In this document: positions 19,146-26,516 of the stretch, piece after piece | Layout of the letters: every line of letters starts with the position of its first letter | Position numbering within the stretch: the first letter of the stretch is position 1 | Assembly (NCBI GenBank): GCA_963734215.1 | Contig: CAVTGH010000006.1 | Span: forward strand, 69,453 to 133,452 | Direction of reading: 5' to 3' | DNA from: an uncultured Acidobacteriaceae bacterium | GTDB lineage: Bacteria; Acidobacteriota; Terriglobia; Terriglobales; Acidobacteriaceae | DNA: 64,000 bases | Made by a program: the position numbers and the translations under genes | The notes under the pieces: generated by a model | Told to the model about the DNA's origin: nothing | The model's input: only the letters and a program-made list of their open reading frames with translations | Databases searched by the model: none

Positions 19146-19360
19146 CTGGACGATAGCGACTCTATCGTCGGGGTATTTCCCAGGAATACATCGGACAACT
19201 CCTAAATCGATTGGAATGCGGACGGGGCCCAGTTATTCATAAGTTATACAGCGTTACGTTTACGATGTCAACGAAATTATTCCGGATAGCGGCCGTGCCA
19301 GGGGGACGGGACATTCCGGGGAAGGCGCCGGGTTGACTCCCGAATCCAGTTGTGCAGGGT

Positions 19361-19381
19361 TATGTACACGTTGTATACATA
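19361..19381. promoter_or_regulatory. Near-palindromic candidate TetR operator TATGTACAcgtTGTATACATA abutting the TetR start codon
   Basis: Read directly. Ends 1 nt before ATG 19382. Confidence 0.4.
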
Positions 19382-19993
19382 ATGGCTGAGGAGACTTGTT
19401 CTCCCGGAGGAGGCAAGGTGCCGCGGCGACCCGACCCCGACCTGGAAAACCAGATCCTGAACGCCGCGCAAAGACTCTGGAAGAAGGGGGGAGCGAAGGC
19501 GCTCACGATGCGGGCGGTGGCGAAAGCGGCCGGGACCAATACGCCCTCGGTTTACCGGTGCTTCCGCGACCGGGAAGATATTCTTCGCGCGATCATGCAG
19601 CGCATCCGATTGGAGATTGCCGCCCAGGTGGAAGGCGCATCCTCTCCGGAAGAGGCTTGCGAACGGTATCTGGATTACGCGGTGAGCCATCCCCGCGAAT
19701 ACGAGCTGTTCTATCAGCAGGAATATGAACTATTTTATTCGCCCCGCTCGATCCGGGCCGGGGCCAAGCCTGCAGGGCGGCCCGTCCGGGAGGTGATTAA
19801 GCGAAAGCTGACGGAAAAGCTGGGCGAATCGCCCGCCGGGCACGGGCCGCTCCTGACGGCCTTGTGGATGGTAACCCACGGAGCGGCGATGCTGCTGGTC
19901 GCAAAGACGATCGCGCCAAAAGATGCCGTGGCCGCGCGCAAGGTGTTTACGAACTTAGTCGCGATGATGTTGCGGGAGGGCTGCGGTTCGTGA
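19382..19993 (+). CDS. TetR/AcrR-family transcriptional regulator
   Basis: N-terminal HTH ILNAAQRLWKKGGAKALTMRAVAKAAGTNTPSVYRCFRDREDIL. Confidence 0.9.
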   Translation: MAEETCSPGGGKVPRRPDPDLENQILNAAQRLWKKGGAKALTMRAVAKAAGTNTPSVYRCFRDREDILRAIMQRIRLEIAAQVEGASSPEEACERYLDYAVSHPREYELFYQQEYELFYSPRSIRAGAKPAGRPVREVIKRKLTEKLGESPAGHGPLLTALWMVTHGAAMLLVAKTIAPKDAVAARKVFTNLVAMMLREGCGS

Positions 19994-20368
19994 AGCGGTT
20001 TCCGGTTCGCAGTTCCCGGCGGGGCGGCGTGGGCTGCCCCGTTTGTCTTAGTCTTTAAGTCTTGAGAAAAAGTTCGAGGGTAGGATGACATTGCGTAATT
20101 TGTGGGGCAGCCCCGTTCCTTCGCGTTTTTTGCGAAGAGCCTGGCCCTGGGAACACCTGTATTTGCACTGGCGTAACCTGTGCCACATGCACGCAACATA
20201 CTTGCGTGAAATGCGGTAGGCTGATAGTAATTATGTGCCTGATGACAGTTCTCTTTGCCTGCTGGGAATTGTTTCAGTGCCCCAACGTAGTTACTAACTT
20301 CCAACAATCGCGGCTGAAGGGCTACGCCGCTTCACCGGGACGCTTGGGGGTTGCGGCGCGCGGAGTGT

Positions 20369-20386
20369 TAAGGATCGTTCGCCTCG
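20369..20386 (+). repeat. Direct repeat TAAGGATCG(T/C)TCGCCTCG, copy 1 (copy 2 at 20658-20675), bracketing the small peptide gene
   Basis: 17 of 18 identical. Copy 2 is embedded in an 11-bp perfect hairpin (20639-20649 / 20669-20679). Confidence 0.6.
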
Positions 20387-20416
20387 GCCTCCCCCCTTCC
20401 TAAGAAGGAGACCATC

Positions 20417-20593
20417 ATGAAGAAGCTTAAGAAACTTGCTATCAAGAAAGTGACGCTGCAGAATCTGGACGAACCCACACTAGATGACATGGCTGGCGGC
20501 CTCCTCACTGCAACTTGCCTCTGCCCGACCAAGGTCACGTGTGTGTGCCCGACCGTCGGTCGGCAGTATACTTGTCCCAACGGCACTTGTTAA
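20417..20593 (+). CDS. 58-aa double-glycine-leader peptide with Cys/Thr-rich core (bacteriocin/RiPP-precursor-like); below the ORF-track size cut-off
   Basis: AAGGAG at 20404-20409, ATG 20417, TAA 20591-20593. Own translation: MKKLKKLAIKKVTLQNLDEPTLDDMAGG|LLTATCLCPTKVTCVCPTVGRQYTCPNGTC. Hydrophobic residues at -4, -7, -12 and -15 relative to GG. Confidence 0.65.
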   Translation: MKKLKKLAIKKVTLQNLDEPTLDDMAGGLLTATCLCPTKVTCVCPTVGRQYTCPNGTC

Positions 20594-20745
20594 CTGGGAA
20601 CAAGCATTCCGTCAGGACGGTACACGAAGGATTGTTGGGAGTCGAGGCGTACGGTGGTAAGGATCGCTCGCCTCGACTCTGCAACCCCTTCGATTAGACA
20701 AATGAAGACCGGCGCAAGGTGAGAACTTGCAGTTCACGCCGGGTG

Positions 20746-20778
20746 CCCCATTTCTCGCGTTCTTTGCGAGAAGAGGGG
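20746..20778. repeat. REP-like imperfect hairpin CCCCATTTCTCGC-N7-GCGAGAAGAGGGG
   Basis: Related to 6201-6231. Confidence 0.55.
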
Positions 20779-20869
20779 CTTTCGGCGGGTTGCCCGGGCT
20801 TTTTTAACCTTTCGCGCATTACCAATACAGTGGGAATGGTGCACGCAAAGATCGTACTTTCCAATAGCC

Positions 20870-22123
20870 TTGTCGTGCGATAGTCTTTGTGTGGCGCTGC
20901 GCGGGCTGCCCGCAGATCGAGGCGTCGTGGTGTGTACAAACTGGGACGGTTTCAACCACTTGCCGGAACTCGATATCGACCTGTTCGCAGGCGCGGGAGG
21001 ACTTGCGCTGGGGCTGAATCACGCGGGGTTCTCGCCCCTTCTCGTTTACGAGAGAGACAAGCACGCCTGCGAGACGCTGCGCCACAACGCGGCCCTCGGC
21101 GGTACGCTCGCAGGCACGGTACAAGAAGAGGATGTTAAGAGAGTCGAATGGCATAATTTTCGAGAGAATGTGCGGTTGCTTGCTGCGGGAGCGCCATGTC
21201 AGCCCTTCAGCCTGGGTGGAAAACATCGCGCGCAGCAAGATGAGCGCAATCTCTTCCCTGAAGTCCTCCGTTCGGTGCGCGCCCTTAAACCGAAGGTCGT
21301 CCTGATCGAGAACGTCCGCGGAATTCTCCGCACCGATTTCCAGCCGTTCTTTGAATACATACTGCGCCAGCTAGAGTACCCTTCGTTGGCTAAGCGTAAG
21401 GGAGAGACATGGCTTGATCATGCTCGCCGAATCCGCCAGCATCAATGCTCCGCTGGGTATATGCCTGAGTACCATGTTTGCTGGAGACTCTTGGAGGCAG
21501 CAGATTTCGGGGTACCCCAACTGCGGAAACGTGTCTTCATCATTGCAACGCGAATTGACCTGCCGGTTTATCAATTCCCGCTTCCGACCCACAGCAAGGA
21601 GGTCCTAGAACGTCGGCAGCAGGGTGGAATCTATTGGGAAAGTCACGGAATCAAGAAGCCTCGCACTGGCGGGCTTCAATTTCCAACGAACAAAAAAAAC
21701 GAGCTCGCACCGTGGATCACAGTCCGAGATGCGCTGGCGGGTTTGCCCGCGCCGCACGAGGATGCGTCGAGAGCATGGATGAATCACTGGTTGATACCCG
21801 GTGCGCGGGCGTATGCGGGACACGGGGGCAGCAGATTGGATTGGCCTTCCAAGACTATCAAGGCCGGAGTGCACGGCGTTCCGGGGGGAGAAAACACTGT
21901 AGTCCTCGACGACGGGAGCCTGAGGTACTACACGTTAAGAGAAGCCGGGCGCATTCAAACCTTTCCTGATTCGCACTTCTTCTCGGGAGCTCGGATTCAC
22001 ATCACACGACAACTCGGCAACGCTGTACCCTGCCTCCTTGCGGCGAGAGTGGCCCAGCCACTTTTTATGTTGCTTGGTTCGACTTCCCAGACGGCGGACA
22101 TGCGTCAAGCGGCAAACATCTAA
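20870..22123 (+). CDS. dcm: DNA (cytosine-5)-methyltransferase
   Basis: Motif I DLFAGAGGLALG, motif IV GAPCQPFS, motif VI ENVRGIL, motif X QLGNAVP. The N-terminal ~30 aa of the ORF may not be translated. Confidence 0.92.
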   Translation: MSCDSLCVALRGLPADRGVVVCTNWDGFNHLPELDIDLFAGAGGLALGLNHAGFSPLLVYERDKHACETLRHNAALGGTLAGTVQEEDVKRVEWHNFRENVRLLAAGAPCQPFSLGGKHRAQQDERNLFPEVLRSVRALKPKVVLIENVRGILRTDFQPFFEYILRQLEYPSLAKRKGETWLDHARRIRQHQCSAGYMPEYHVCWRLLEAADFGVPQLRKRVFIIATRIDLPVYQFPLPTHSKEVLERRQQGGIYWESHGIKKPRTGGLQFPTNKKNELAPWITVRDALAGLPAPHEDASRAWMNHWLIPGARAYAGHGGSRLDWPSKTIKAGVHGVPGGENTVVLDDGSLRYYTLREAGRIQTFPDSHFFSGARIHITRQLGNAVPCLLAARVAQPLFMLLGSTSQTADMRQAANI

Positions 22124-22581
22124 TGCCGGGTTCGAGGAGAACTCTCAAAGTGCGCGCTAGAGCTGATCCCCTCTCAACGAAACAGCGGTCCTCCCTGATG
22201 TCCAGAGTCAGGAGCCGCGGAAATCGTTCGACGGAAGTCGCTGTCGAAGAGGTCCTGAGGACGCATCGAATCCGGGGATGGGTAAAACACCCTCATGATG
22301 TACTCGGCAGGCCAGATTTCTATTTTCCGAAGGACATGCTTGCCATCTTCGTTGACGGCTGCTTTTGGCACCGCTGCCGACGATGCGCCCGAAGCGTGCC
22401 GAGCAATCGACACCTTTTTTGGCTCAACAAAATCGCCCAAAATGTGCGTCGCGACGAAAGAATCCGCCGTACCTTACGGCGAAGAGGATACTCGGTCATG
22501 CGAATATGGGAACACTCCATCCCTCATCAACGCACCTGGTTAGCGCGGATGAGAAGAATGCTTGACCGCAGGTCGAAGTAA
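22123..22581 (+). CDS. vsr: Very-short-patch repair endonuclease
   Basis: RSSLMSRVRSRGNRSTE...GRPDFYFPKDMLAIFVDGCFWHRC... is the Vsr signature. TAATG overlap with dcm. Confidence 0.9.
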   Translation: MPGSRRTLKVRARADPLSTKQRSSLMSRVRSRGNRSTEVAVEEVLRTHRIRGWVKHPHDVLGRPDFYFPKDMLAIFVDGCFWHRCRRCARSVPSNRHLFWLNKIAQNVRRDERIRRTLRRRGYSVMRIWEHSIPHQRTWLARMRRMLDRRSK

Positions 22582-22594
22582 TCGGAGCAGCGAG

Positions 22595-23722
22595 CTAGGA
22601 TGACTCAGCCAGAATCGAGGCGTCAAATTTGAAAGTGCCATGCTTCGACAAATATTTCAGCAAGATACCGAGACGAATGCGGATAGCATAGGCGTCATTC
22701 GGTGTTTGCGAGTGCTTGTCGAATTCCAGAAGAGCTAGCTCCACTGATGTCGAGGTTTCCCCTTGCTCTTCAGCGACCTCTCGATTCTTTTCTCTGTTCT
22801 TTTCGAATTGCGCCAGCATGTCACGGCTGACGCTGCTGACTTTTCCCAGCCTGATGAACCGGAATAGATGGAAGTACAGAGTGATCATCCCGACTTGGCG
22901 TAGCAGTTTATCCTGCGTGCCGAAGGCGCTCGTCATGAGAGCGAGAGTGTTGTCCGTCTCGTTCGCCAGCGCCGACACTGCAGATTGGGAAGCCTTTCTG
23001 GCTCCTTCTTGTCGCCATTTCTTGAACTGACGCACGAATGCGTCGAGGTCAGCTTTTTTTGTGTTCACGATCTCTTTCGAGAATTCGATGAACAAGAACT
23101 TAGCCGCAAGATCCCGGTGCCGATAGCGATTATCTGGGAAGGCAACGTGCCTGGTGAAGAATTTGTGGCCGGAAATATTTTGAATTGCATTTGGCAAGGG
23201 ACCTCCGAACGCGTTTCGTTTTTCGGGCGCGTTCAGCGGTACAGCCTCATTGAGTCGCGAAAACATATCCTCAATAAGGTCGATATCATTGGTCCGTATT
23301 GTGACAATGTCCAGCGGTGTTGAGTCGAATCGACTCTTGAGTTGTGGATATTTTTCAGCCAACTGCTTGTAGCCTAAGCCCCCGGCCTTAACCGTGCTGT
23401 CTCTAATGAACTCGAAATCGTCGGCGAGCGATATGTTGCCGTCAATAAAGTCCCAGATCGTTTGTATTCTCTGTTTTCCGTCAACTATTGCGTAGCGATA
23501 TTTCTTCGAACCAATTTTCTTGGGTGGTACAAACTCATGAAAGTAAAGCTTCGGGACGTCGAAACCGTTAATGATCGAATCAATGAGTAGCTGGCGCTTC
23601 TCCCTGGTCCAGATTCCGCTGATGCGCTGATAAGCCGGGTCAAGTTGAATATCGTCTCGTTCGGAATAGACGATCAATGCTGAACTCTGGGGATACCTCC
23701 CGAGACTGAATTCATCTTTCAT
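22595..23722 (-). CDS. DUF262 (ParB/GmrSD-N-like) domain protein without a DUF1524/HNH nuclease half
   Basis: DPAYQRISGIWTREKRQLLIDSIINGFDVPKLYF and AIVDGKQRIQTIWDFIDG are DUF262 hallmarks. The C-terminal ~200 aa is alpha-helical-looking with no His-Me motif seen. Confidence 0.8.
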   Translation of the reverse strand: MKDEFSLGRYPQSSALIVYSERDDIQLDPAYQRISGIWTREKRQLLIDSIINGFDVPKLYFHEFVPPKKIGSKKYRYAIVDGKQRIQTIWDFIDGNISLADDFEFIRDSTVKAGGLGYKQLAEKYPQLKSRFDSTPLDIVTIRTNDIDLIEDMFSRLNEAVPLNAPEKRNAFGGPLPNAIQNISGHKFFTRHVAFPDNRYRHRDLAAKFLFIEFSKEIVNTKKADLDAFVRQFKKWRQEGARKASQSAVSALANETDNTLALMTSAFGTQDKLLRQVGMITLYFHLFRFIRLGKVSSVSRDMLAQFEKNREKNREVAEEQGETSTSVELALLEFDKHSQTPNDAYAIRIRLGILLKYLSKHGTFKFDASILAESS

Positions 23723-24485
23723 AGGGTCTCCGAGCTAGCCGAGCGACATTATCGAGCTCTGGAAGAATACCGAGCTCGTCAATTCTTAATGCTTCGAGCT
23801 GACGCCTGATCCGCGGTTTTGCGCCCGAAGGAATGATGTATCGGCCTATATGCTTTCCGTCGCTGAGCGATTCGATGGGACTCTGATCGCGATGGGTGAC
23901 CGTGAACACGCTGAACTGCGCCTGCATTCGCTTCGAATGTCTAATCGCGATCCCCGCTGCAGGAGTGAGGCGGGTAGTCTGTTCGGACGCCATAACCGAC
24001 GGCAGATAATTTCGCAGGTTCCTGTTGTCGTCTTCAAAGATAGGGAGCGCGAGCTTGTTCGTGAGCTTGATACTAGCCTGCAGGTTTAGTTCAGCAGGAA
24101 GCAGGAGCCACAAGGCACCGTCTTTGGAATCGTTCTTCGTCAGGTTGCCGACATCATTGACTGCGAAATAAAGACCGATGAGAGGGCTTTCGCTCCAATC
24201 CAAGAGCCGCGTTGGAACACTGTGGTGTCGGGCAAGAAATAACCACTCCCATTCGGATTGCGGTCGATCAGTGACAAACTGAATCGCATTCTGTTTGAAC
24301 GCATTGATCAACGCACTCTCATGTTCAAGTTTGAAGGGTGGACGGCCAAGTGAAGGTACTAGCGAGTGCTTGCTATTGGTCGATCCGCGAAACCAGATAG
24401 GCGTCCGCCTCGCGAGGGCCCGATGCGACTCGACGGCGGTCAGCAGGTCGCCGACGCTACGGATTCTCCTCTCATCAAAAAACAT
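23712..24485 (-). CDS. FRG-domain protein
   Basis: IWFRGSTNSKHSLVPSLGR and LARHHSVPTRLLDWSESPLIGLYFAV match the FRG domain consensus. Its 3' end overlaps the DUF262 start by 11 nt. Confidence 0.8.
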   Translation of the reverse strand: MFFDERRIRSVGDLLTAVESHRALARRTPIWFRGSTNSKHSLVPSLGRPPFKLEHESALINAFKQNAIQFVTDRPQSEWEWLFLARHHSVPTRLLDWSESPLIGLYFAVNDVGNLTKNDSKDGALWLLLPAELNLQASIKLTNKLALPIFEDDNRNLRNYLPSVMASEQTTRLTPAAGIAIRHSKRMQAQFSVFTVTHRDQSPIESLSDGKHIGRYIIPSGAKPRIRRQLEALRIDELGILPELDNVARLARRPYER

Positions 24486-24592
24486 CGATCTGCTCTTTGC
24501 GCTTGCTGTGTCATCGTGGGCCGAACAGGGCCATGCAACTTTCTACGCTGTTCGAGCAATTCGCGCAAGTCAGGAGAGCACCTTCTATCCAG

Positions 24593-24880
24593 GGGGCTGG
24601 CCCAGCCGTACTCTAGCACGGCACGGGATGCCCCACCCGTGGCAGTTTCACGGGTGGGCTGCTGCGAACTCTCCCCTGCATGTTCATCGGTCACAGCGAA
24701 ATGTTCCTGTTACATTGCTCCAATGCCGACAAATCCACGCCGCTACTACGGCTCTTGGAGCTTCACATCCGCAAAATCTCCTGAGCCCGTCGGCGTCGTG
24801 GCCCACCCGTGAAACCGCCACGGGTGGGGCATCCAGTTCGGGCTTGCTCGGACGAAATGCGTCGGCTGGGCCAGCCCCCT
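24593..24880. repeat. Composite inverted pair of REP-like modules
   Basis: Two modules, AGGGGGCTGGCCCAGCCG and GATGCCCCACCCGTGGCRGTTTCACGGGTGGG. The left arm (24593-24660) is the reverse complement of the right arm (24800-24880), with variable 18- versus 29-nt linkers. Each arm also contains its own CCACCCGTG-N7/8-CACGGGTGG hairpin. Confidence 0.7.
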
Positions 24881-24949
24881 CTGAGTCACAGCAAGCAAGG
24901 AGTCACCCTTAGGCGACCCGGGCTCGGGTGGTGAGGTAGGGATCCCTTC

Positions 24950-24968
24950 GGCTTCGCTCAGGGCAGGC
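24950..24968 (+). repeat. Dispersed repeat core GGCTTCGCTCAGGGCAGGC (copy 2)
   Basis: See 5660-5678 and 25117-25135. Confidence 0.6.
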
Positions 24969-25116
24969 TTTCGACTGCATGCCGATTCTCTGCGCTCTTC
25001 GGCATGCTCCGCTCAAGATGACAGGGATCTGGGTTCGTCGAAGGAAAGAAGGCGACTACGGGGGCTGAAGCCGCGTTCCTTTATGGGGCGCTCGTGTGGC
25101 ACCCTTCGACTCACTT

Positions 25117-25135
25117 GCGCTCGCTCAGGGCAGGC
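25117..25135 (+). repeat. Dispersed repeat core GCGCTCGCTCAGGGCAGGC (copy 3)
   Basis: See 5660-5678 and 24950-24968. Confidence 0.6.
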
Positions 25136-25175
25136 TCAAATGAACTCGTGCCCTTCCCGGTCAGCTGCAAAAGGA

Positions 25176-25268
25176 AAGGTAAAGTCAAAAGCAAAATCAA
25201 AAGCAAAATCAAGATCAAGATCAAGATCAAGATCAGGATCAAGGTCAAAATCAAAATCAAGGTCAAAG
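25176..25268. repeat. Hexanucleotide microsatellite (AARRTC)n including (AAGATC)x4 at 25211-25234
   Basis: aaggtaaagtcaaaagcaaaatcaaaagcaaaatcaagatcaagatcaagatcaagatcaggatcaaggtcaaaatcaaaatcaaggtc, intergenic, just downstream of rodZ. Confidence 0.85.
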
Positions 25269-25270
25269 GC

Positions 25271-25290
25271 AGCGGACAAAAGTGTCCGCT
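25271..25290 (-). terminator. Hairpin terminator downstream of rodZ
   Basis: AGCGGACA-aaag-TGTCCGCT, 8-bp stem. The minus-strand continuation is T-rich (gcctttgaccttgattttgatttt). Confidence 0.55.
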
Positions 25291-25307
25291 CTACACGTGC
25301 GCGCAGG

Positions 25308-26516
25308 TCAGGGGGTAGGGTTTGTGGGCTGGGCTGGGGCGGAGGTTCGCACGCCGGAGGCGTTGAAAGTGTAGGTGCGGACTTCGCCGGGGTTGCCGCT
25401 GGCGGGAATTTCTTCGCCGTTGAACAGGAAGCTGATGCCGGCGGCGTTGCCAGCTCTTACGGTGATCTCGTGGGCGGCGCGAACGGAAGTGTGAGCGGGG
25501 GCGATGAGAGTTTCGTGGGCGACGGGTTGGCCGTCGGCGGTGATGGCGATCCATGAGGTTTGGTCGGCGCGGATCAGCAGGGTGAATGTGGGCGAGGGCT
25601 GGGCGGCGGCTGGAGAACTGGGTTTCGCTACGGGCGGGTTGATGTTTGGAGCGGATGTGTTTGCGGTGGAGTTGCTGGTGGATGGCGACGGTTTAGGCAG
25701 GCGCGGGGCGGCCGGGGAAGCGGCGGCCGGCAATGGGCGAGTTGGGGCGGCGGACGCGAGGGCGGCGGGAGCGGGCGATGGATGGGAAGCCGCGGGCTGC
25801 GATGCGGCGGCGGACTGGTGGTGACGGCGAAGGGTCCAGAGGGCCAGAGCTAGCGTGATCAGGAGCAGGGCGGTGGCGAGTTTTCCGAAGGGGACGCGGC
25901 GGGTGGAATCCGCCGCGGGGGTGGGTGCCGCCGGCGCGATTGGTTCGGAATGGCTGTGCGGCGGGTGCGAAGACGGCGGTGCGGAAGTGCGGTGCGGGAA
26001 AGAAAGAGGCGGCGCGGGAACAACGCCGTCGAGGCTTTCGTCGGGACGAGCTTCATTGGGACGAGCTTCATGAGGGGGAAACTCACGGTCTTCGCGGCGG
26101 CGAGTTTCTTTGCGGCGGGCTTCGGCGCGGCGATCCGCAGCCGGATCGGTTGCGTGCGCGCCGGTGATGGATTTGCCGGCGGGGGCTCGGAAATCGGGGA
26201 GAATGGTCTGGGAGTGAATCTGGCTCTCGCCCAAGGCGGCCAGATAATCGGCGATGGTCTCTTCTTCGTCGAGGCCGACCTGGCGGGCATAAGCGCGGAC
26301 AAAACCCTTGTTGAAGACGCCGCCGGGAAGCTGGTCAAAGCGTTCGTTTTCGATGGCGCTCAACATGCGCGTGCTGATTTTTGTGACGCTGGAGATGGCG
26401 TCGAGCGAGATGGCGCGCTGCTCGCGCTGTTGGCGAAGTTTTTCTCCGAACGCACCCACGATGGACTCCAGCGGGCGGGATGAAGATTTCCCCCGGCCGC
26501 ATCGATATGCGAACAA
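25308..26516 (-). CDS. rodZ: Cytoskeleton protein RodZ-like (XRE HTH, Pro/Ala-rich linker with TM, DUF4115)
   Basis: FGEKLRQQREQRAISLDAISSVTKISTRMLSAIENERFDQLPGGVFNKGFVRAYARQVGLD. TM segment LATALLLITLALALWTL. C-terminus TLLIRADQTSWIAITADGQPV...ITVRAGNAAGISFLFNGEEI. Confidence 0.85.
   Translation of the reverse strand: MFAYRCGRGKSSSRPLESIVGAFGEKLRQQREQRAISLDAISSVTKISTRMLSAIENERFDQLPGGVFNKGFVRAYARQVGLDEEETIADYLAALGESQIHSQTILPDFRAPAGKSITGAHATDPAADRRAEARRKETRRREDREFPPHEARPNEARPDESLDGVVPAPPLSFPHRTSAPPSSHPPHSHSEPIAPAAPTPAADSTRRVPFGKLATALLLITLALALWTLRRHHQSAAASQPAASHPSPAPAALASAAPTRPLPAAASPAAPRLPKPSPSTSNSTANTSAPNINPPVAKPSSPAAAQPSPTFTLLIRADQTSWIAITADGQPVAHETLIAPAHTSVRAAHEITVRAGNAAGISFLFNGEEIPASGNPGEVRTYTFNASGVRTSAPAQPTNPTP

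Follow-up and report, generated by a model that had tools for sequence, protein, structure and literature searches.

The precursor gene and its leader

The stretch of DNA analysed here (the window, 64,000 nucleotides) is C6:69,453-133,452 of genome G000, a 5.7-Mb genome of a Terriglobales acidobacterium (Acidobacteriota), C6 being the window's own contig. An open reading frame (ORF) at 20417-20593 on the + strand (C6:89,869 on the contig) encodes the 58-residue peptide MKKLKKLAIKKVTLQNLDEPTLDDMAGGLLTATCLCPTKVTCVCPTVGRQYTCPNGTC, which is examined as a candidate precursor of a class I lanthipeptide. The gene has the following parts, given in window coordinates:

20405-20410, + strand: Shine-Dalgarno sequence AAGGAG, with a 6-nt spacer to the ATG; paralogues carry AAGGAG(G/A) at equal offset
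20417-20500, + strand: leader, 28 aa, MKKLKKLAIKKVTLQNLDEPTLDDMAGG, with LxLxKx5L motif, NLDEP box and predicted GG cleavage site
20501-20593, + strand: core, 30 aa, LLTATCLCPTKVTCVCPTVGRQYTCPNGTC, plus stop codon; 7 Thr, 6 Cys, 0 Ser

The ORF and the upstream AAGGAG had been pointed out in an earlier note made from the letters of the window; both are present, and the peptide is identical to the one given there (the spacer length above is as counted here). The peptide was also described there as unannotated, which was not borne out, as NCBI, ENA and Logan assemblies already list the exact protein as a called, nameless gene product. Independent assemblies contain the gene on at least 10 contigs, with equal gene context and a DNA identity of ~100%; hence, an assembly artefact was excluded. 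Eight other assemblies were compared over 3.2 kb and all proved ~100% identical, which makes them uninformative on selection. The 58-residue ORF is a real gene and a member of the leader family described below.

The LxLxKx5L motif of the leader reads L7-A-I9-K-K11-VTLQN-L17, followed by G27-G28, with Ile replacing the second Leu; an exact match is present in paralogues such as KLELKKVTLRNL. With the glycine pair numbered G-2 and G-1, hydrophobic residues counted back from G-1 occupy positions -4 (Met), -7, -12 and -15 (all Leu), in agreement with the double-glycine spacing that had been claimed for this peptide. Class I LanAs of Bacteroidetes were reported to have LxLxKx5L instead of the FxLD motif, often with a GG end, and to be accompanied in their cluster by a C39 protease gene (Walker et al. 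2020, PMC7268733), and the window leader, judged by its motifs, fits this LxLxKx5L, GG and C39 type.

A Pfam search of the window peptide matched no family. TIGR04149 gave E = 0.0012 and 18.7 bits, short of its curated cut-off of 25, and NF038153 (class I lanthipeptide leader, lant_leader_L1a) gave 16.9 bits by hmmscan and 17.3 in the genome search. When the comparison was extended to the paralogue family, NF038153 matched 14 of 17 members (E <= 0.1; best E = 1.6e-7) and TIGR04149 matched 8, and the paralogue at C6:21408 exceeded the NF038153 cut-off (28.7 vs 22 bits). Across the family, NF038153 is therefore the better-fitting leader model, and the likeness to TIGR04149 suggested in the earlier note, though real, is weak and below the cut-off.

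Paralogue family in the genome

When the peptide was run against the whole genome by tblastn, 12 further leader matches came up at E <= 0.01, plus weaker ones on C2. The genome holds ~15 leader copies at six sites, the window gene included; the other copies are distributed as follows:

C6:21.4-24.0 kb, + strand: array of six precursor copies (tblastn)
C8:448.1-449.6 kb: array of five or six copies (tblastn)
C5:1,166,5xx: single copy (tblastn)
C2: two copies (weaker tblastn matches)

All copies have the leader (M/V)KKxKKLxIKKVTL(R/Q)(N/D)LDEPxLxxxAGG in common, and their Cys/Thr/Ser-rich cores are mutually unalignable. The nearest paralogues of the window gene are the satellite copies on C8, with a protein identity of 61-64% and a leader DNA identity of 79%. 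Two copies are pseudogenes: in C8:448933-449025, a TGA stands straight after the leader, whose end reads LGW instead of GG, and C6:22824-22997 (the C6:22857 copy) is without the Lys-rich leader N-terminus.

No modification enzymes were found beside the copies on C8, C5 and C2, whose neighbouring genes encode PNPase, HD-CE/HATPase, TPR and cupin proteins. An 859-aa HD-CE + HATPase_c_3 protein (C8:443880-446459) adjoins the C8 array, and satellite precursors stand beside defence-type genes in two cases, namely this array and the window gene.

A promoter-like module of ~75 nt, composed of TTGACC-N17-(G)TAAGAT and a conserved 5' leader, precedes eight family genes (nhmmer E = 1e-21 to 2e-3), and a profile built on it recovers all eight sites:

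C6:21308-23852, C5:1166605-1166678 and C2:438859-438934: promoter-like module (nhmmer, 8/8 family sites)

The module is absent before the C8 array as well as at the window gene (see below), and the leader family may be split into two regulatory groups.

Modification and export cluster

LanB, LanC and the C39-peptidase ABC transporter are each encoded exactly once in the genome, and the three form one cluster with the C6 precursor array. The cluster is on the same contig as the window gene, 60-70 kb upstream, and spans C6:17.9-29.8 kb:

C6:17,895-21,218, - strand: LanB, both domains (Lant_dehydr_N, E = 1e-155; Lant_dehydr_C, E = 3e-62)
C6:21,405-24,041, + strand: six precursor genes
C6:24,260-26,047: HlyD
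C6:26,054-28,327: C39-ABC
C6:28,411-29,751: LanC (E = 1.5e-31)
C6:29,990-31,513: B12-binding radical SAM, directly after LanC

On alignment to solved LanC proteins, it was observed that the GxAHG, WCYG and CHG zinc-site motifs are retained. Among solved structures, the C39 domain matches 6mpz best (E = 1.7e-31), which is the double-glycine protease domain from an AMS/PCAT transporter, and both the Cys and the His blocks are aligned. The enzyme set is complete and, as far as its motifs indicate, apparently intact. The window gene is located ~60 kb past LanC, outside the biosynthetic cluster. The genome-wide search that the earlier note had proposed thus recovered paralogous leaders, LanB, LanC and C39-ABC alike. 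The designation of the gene as an orphan precursor stands insofar as no LanB, LanC or C39 gene is present in the window; it fails at the level of the contig, where paralogues and the full enzyme cluster lie elsewhere. Of the two products that had been considered, disulfide-rich or thioether (lanthipeptide-like), it is the thioether one that is backed by the genome content, i.e., LanB, LanC and the precursor cluster.

The best NCBIfam matches of the B12-binding radical SAM protein are radical SAM families of methyltransferase type, all below their cut-offs, and the protein may serve the lanthipeptide cluster as a tailoring C-methyltransferase.

Its presence after LanC bears on a different reading, according to which the peptide is a radical-SAM-modified RiPP (a peptide made on ribosomes and modified after translation) of the TIGR04149 kind, with a radical SAM/SPASM maturase in place of LanB and LanC. 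Five SPASM-domain proteins are encoded in the genome, but none of the five genes is near any leader copy, and TIGR04148, the partner maturase of TIGR04149, is absent from the genome (best match 31.2 bits vs a cut-off of 300). The TIGR04149 match itself, weak for the window peptide and present in 8/17 family members, lends this reading some weight, although the score is below the cut-off (18.7 vs 25 bits). The B12-binding protein is of the methyltransferase type and not SPASM, and would supply at most a tailoring step. This was judged the least probable of the readings considered.

Selection and distribution of the leader

The leader codons of the window gene were compared with those of nine paralogues, which gave proportions of synonymous differences (pS) of 0.43-0.85 and of nonsynonymous differences (pN) of 0.13-0.21, with pN/pS of 0.16-0.36. 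The window leader is under purifying selection. As the synonymous sites are near saturation while the peptide is held, it was concluded that the leader has been preserved as a coding sequence over a long divergence.

In what follows, G-labels denote congener genomes (60 others were sampled), L-labels retrieved loci and P-labels representative protein clusters. At E <= 0.001, 71 clusters were recovered from 1.84 billion representative proteins, and nearly all are peptides of 50-80 residues that carry this leader. Reference genomes searched by pattern yielded 24 loci, every one of them in metagenome-assembled genomes of Acidobacteriota/Terriglobales, the hosts being Candidatus Sulfotelmatobacter, "uncultured Acidobacteriaceae", Ca. 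Angelobacter and Ca. Aquilonibacter. Within the genus sample, the leader family was found in three of the 60 other genomes (G047, G050 and G071), at 6-11 copies each. LanB is present in all three leader-bearing congeners (E <= 1e-144), and three more genomes have LanB-like genes without this leader; these co-occurrence counts are descriptive only, since related genomes are not independent.

The location of the window gene away from the enzymes has parallels in other genomes. In G050, which consists of three contigs, seven of eight leader copies are far from LanB. Among the 24 acidobacterial loci, 15 had no match to LanB, HlyD, LanT, LanC or B12-binding radical SAM within 6 kb, and one further locus had a weak LanT match only within this distance; the remaining eight comprise three with the full G000 order (LanB, HlyD, LanT, LanC) and five with a partial cluster. 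Moreover, two satellite cores of G000 have counterparts in other species: the C5 core resembles that of L060 from Ca. Sulfotelmatobacter SPRUCE 145 (ASEGTFTICIHVTCAGQKTCK vs ASEGTFSVCIHVTCAGQKTCNG), and the C8:448616 core resembles that of L030 from G071 (TSIQPTTTVQPTHQIKCITTG vs TIQPTTTVQPTHQTSCITTVCK). From the leader loci without enzymes and the two satellite cores conserved across species, it was concluded that scattered copies are regular and at least partly maintained in the lineage. For a lanthipeptide, the core of the second pair is unusually poor in Cys, with just one or two.

Core peptide

In the window core, Ser/Thr residues are at least as numerous as Cys (7 Thr vs 6 Cys); the whole peptide has 9 Thr. 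The six Cys had been counted correctly in the earlier note, where the number of Thr was put at eight instead of seven. The internal TC(L/V)CPT duplication described there is present in the peptide, as TCLCPT and TCVCPT, and is visible in the DNA also, 20513-20530 and 20537-20554 being 78% identical.

A related core with the pattern TATC..CPT..TCP(N/K)GTC occurs in P0012, for which a core-only BLASTP comparison gave 18/33 identities (E = 6e-6). A word-based search with residues 19-58 returned nothing beyond the protein itself. P0009 and P0018, which gave long matches in the representative search, were dismissed as core relatives because their sequences are repetitive.

The segment TATCHC of nisin A forms the interlocked D/E rings. 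The N-terminus of the window core, TATCLC, resembles it, which we take to be a lead and not a test.

The even number of Cys would also permit three disulfides, and the GG leader together with a C39 exporter and its HlyD partner in the genome would be in keeping with an unmodified or disulfide-bonded double-glycine bacteriocin, cut and exported by C39-ABC without the involvement of LanB and LanC. However, the same leader is carried by six precursor genes sited between LanB and the exporter and LanC genes, and every genome of the genus in which the leader family was found also bears LanB. The spacing of Thr-x-x-Cys and Thr-x-Thr-Cys-x-Cys in the core would, in addition, be typical of thioether rings. 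A bacteriocin of this kind is therefore considered very improbable.

Genomic neighbourhood and flanking repeats

The features surrounding the precursor gene in the window are the following:

19352-19993, + strand: TetR-family regulator, conserved upstream neighbour, syntenic in congeners
20344-20399, + strand: upstream copy of a ~56-nt duplicated segment, holding the 22-nt repeat 20365-20386
20635-20691, + strand: downstream copy of the ~56-nt duplicated segment, holding the repeat 20654-20675
20639-20649 / 20669-20679, + strand: perfect stem of 11 bp with a 19-nt loop, 46 nt past the stop codon
20702-20722, + strand: perhaps the relic start of a second precursor gene in tandem (ATGAAGA..., MKTGAR and stop), suggestive only
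20737-20787: REP-like palindrome GTGCCCCATTTCTCGCGTTCTTTGCGAGAAGAGGGGC, a genome- and genus-wide repeat
20781-20806, + strand: terminator-like stem, then CTTTTTT; probable (predicted) transcript end
20870-24485: downstream block of C5-cytosine methylase, Vsr, GmrSD_N/DUF262 and FRG genes

Synteny of the TetR gene and its divergent 248-aa neighbour extends to at least seven congeners. In the window, 5.3 kb (19994-25307) separate the TetR gene from gene 25308-26516 and hold the peptide gene and the downstream block; in congener G002, ~84 nt lie between the TetR match and the match to gene 25308-26516, the latter on the opposite strand. The GC content is 0.47-0.58 in this 5.3-kb stretch vs 0.60-0.70 in its flanks. 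The peptide gene sits at the edge of a variable stretch.

The gene is flanked by the 18-nt direct repeats that had been reported earlier (20369-20386 and 20658-20675, 17/18 identical). The repeats are real but were understated, being the core of a larger duplicate: they extend to 22 nt with 20/22 identities (20365-20386 and 20654-20675), and a gapped alignment of the ~56-nt copies gave a Smith-Waterman score of 44, compared with a mean of 17.5 (standard deviation 2.3, maximum 29) in 500 shuffles. The 22-nt repeat is unique in the 5.7-Mb genome, one chance match with two mismatches aside; for this uniqueness it was rejected as a dispersed site, and the earlier suggestion of a shared regulatory site is left without support. 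The period of the duplication, 291 nt, falls inside the 265-452-nt gene spacing of the C6 and C8 arrays. The direct repeats are probably the core of a duplicated upstream segment that was left by a decayed second tandem cassette. The idea of a cassette bracketed by repeats is thereby replaced by that of a local duplication, for which there is partial support.

After the second repeat copy, ATGAAGA and AACTTGC occur at about the expected offsets and are followed by an early stop and then the REP-like element; tested alone, this ATGAAGA...AACTTGC extension falls short of significance, its score of 9 being attained by 11% of shuffles. Two further roles for the repeat were considered and rejected. 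As the -10 region of a TTGACC-N17-TAAGAT module it looked suggestive in a MAFFT alignment and was refuted by the null nhmmer result upstream of the window gene, and as a hairpin its upstream copy showed no significant fold (z = +0.79).

The 11-bp perfect hairpin spanning the second repeat, noticed earlier, was confirmed, the arms being complementary at 11/11 positions. The 3' region has a minimum free energy of -47 kcal/mol, better than 200/200 shuffles (z = -2.67), and the hairpin is likely a 3' stabiliser or attenuator of the transcript. An Rfam search of 19900-20950 matched no known RNA family. The REP-like element has ~40 copies in G000 and was present in 18/18 congeners first searched. 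A degenerate relative of the palindrome is found at ~20100-20150, and similar elements lie just 3' of two C8 precursor genes. In other assemblies, contigs break within the palindrome, L067 and L070 ending at about window position 20767.

Proposed pathway and evaluation

On the preferred reading, with a probability of roughly 0.68, the ORF represents a class I lanthipeptide precursor gene (LanA, LxLxKx5L/double-glycine type) that is located outside its cluster and whose product is matured in trans by the LanB, LanC and C39-ABC of the C6 cluster. The gene would be transcribed and the 58-aa prepeptide translated from its own strong ribosome-binding site. The leader, common with ~14 paralogues, would be recognised in trans by the sole LanB, which would convert core Thr to dehydrobutyrine via glutamyl-tRNA. 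The sole LanC, a zinc-dependent cyclase, would add the six Cys thiols to give up to six methyllanthionine rings, in a pattern that, like the activity of the peptide, is a matter of prediction. The sole C39-ABC transporter, with HlyD, would cut past G27-G28 and export the 30-residue core.

Several observations weigh against this reading. A distance of ~60 kb separates the window gene from the enzymes, and the window copy is under the curated cut-offs of both leader models (16.9 vs 22 bits for NF038153; 18.7 vs 25 for TIGR04149). No orthologue of the window core was found in the 60 congeners searched, where the matches cover the leader only. The gene lies within a lower-GC variable stretch beside defence-type genes, it may be adjoined by a decayed cassette, and its leader family includes obvious pseudogenes. 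Finally, the + strand upstream of the gene yielded no sigma-70-like promoter, and the family's promoter-like module was not detectable there, either genome-wide at E <= 100 or in a local search of 561 nt.

Much the same evidence can be cited for a silent or decaying satellite, i.e., a stranded precursor duplicate, unexpressed or unused, that is becoming a pseudogene. The possible decayed second cassette directly 3' of the gene, the clear pseudogenes in the family (C8:448933 and C6:22857), the location next to defence genes, the missing consensus promoter and family module, and the lack of an orthologous core in the congeners would all agree with it. Against this fate, the ORF is intact and its AAGGAG site and spacer are optimal; all leader features for recognition and GG cleavage are retained; the leader shows the low pN/pS given above at near-saturated synonymous sites; and a related core is known elsewhere (P0012). 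A silent satellite was accordingly regarded as unlikely.

Comparison with known systems

Nearly all characterised class I lanthipeptides are Gram-positive (PMC9993889), and the Gram-negative GG-leader class I type is known from genome mining, mainly of Bacteroidetes (PMC7268733). This leader type is now seen in Acidobacteriota, and among the papers searched there was none on a dispersed class I precursor library in this phylum. Mining based on clusters (~7 genes around LanC) would overlook most precursor genes in these genomes. If processing in trans is true, one LanB/LanC pair would accept very different cores, which would be useful for enzyme engineering and for the discovery of new peptides in a soil phylum that is hard to culture. 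By itself, the window gene is a modest addition, namely a further predicted precursor whose core sequence is new.

The closest likeness is to the class I LanAs of Bacteroidetes (PMC7268733; NF038153; the pinensin-related group), which, like G000, combine an L-x-(L/I)-x-K-x5-L and GG leader with full-length LanB and LanC, a C39-peptidase ABC exporter and a Cys/Thr-rich core. Unlike these, the window gene belongs to a host of the Acidobacteriota (Terriglobales), scores below the cut-off of NF038153, is 60 kb from its presumed enzymes and has a new core sequence. The gene is most likely a class I LanA of the LxLxKx5L/GG type, from which it departs in two formal features, the score under the hidden Markov model cut-off and the location outside the cluster.

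With the TIGR04149 (GG_sam_targ_CFB) precursors of Bacteroidota, the window leader has in common the Lys-rich KKLxLxK..TL..L sequence ending in GG; in contrast to those systems, G000 is without TIGR04148 and its genomic partners are LanB and LanC. The C39-ABC exporter with 6mpz-aligned catalytic blocks is a feature also met in unmodified class II GG bacteriocins, from which G000 differs in that six paralogues are sited between the LanB and the LanT/LanC genes.

Compared with nisin A of Lactococcus lactis, the window system is similar in its LanB/LanC chemistry (predicted in G000) and in an NLD box like the FNLD of nisin. The window core, however, is without the lipid II-binding SxxxCTPGC motif, the GG leader is predicted to be removed by the C39 transporter rather than by a LanP subtilisin as in nisin, and the host is Gram-negative, with an HlyD adaptor.

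The prochlorosins, made by ProcM/SyncM (class II) in marine picocyanobacteria, resemble the G000 system in its organisation: each genome combines one modifying system with many precursors that have a conserved leader and hypervariable cores, the precursor genes are dispersed, and the leader removal is of GG type (predicted in G000). Many precursor genes of the prochlorosin type are located far from the enzyme (PMC7268733). The G000 enzymes differ in being class I, with separate LanB and LanC and no LanM among them, and the leader is not Nif11; promiscuous processing in G000 is putative. It is tentatively proposed, at slightly less than even odds, that Terriglobales possess a class I equivalent of the prochlorosin system, in which one LanB/LanC/C39-ABC set would mature a genome-wide library of 8-15 precursors whose leader is nearly constant and whose cores are hypervariable. 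The majority of these would be scattered singly or in small arrays and turned over by tandem duplication and decay, and the window gene would be a live member with a dead twin.

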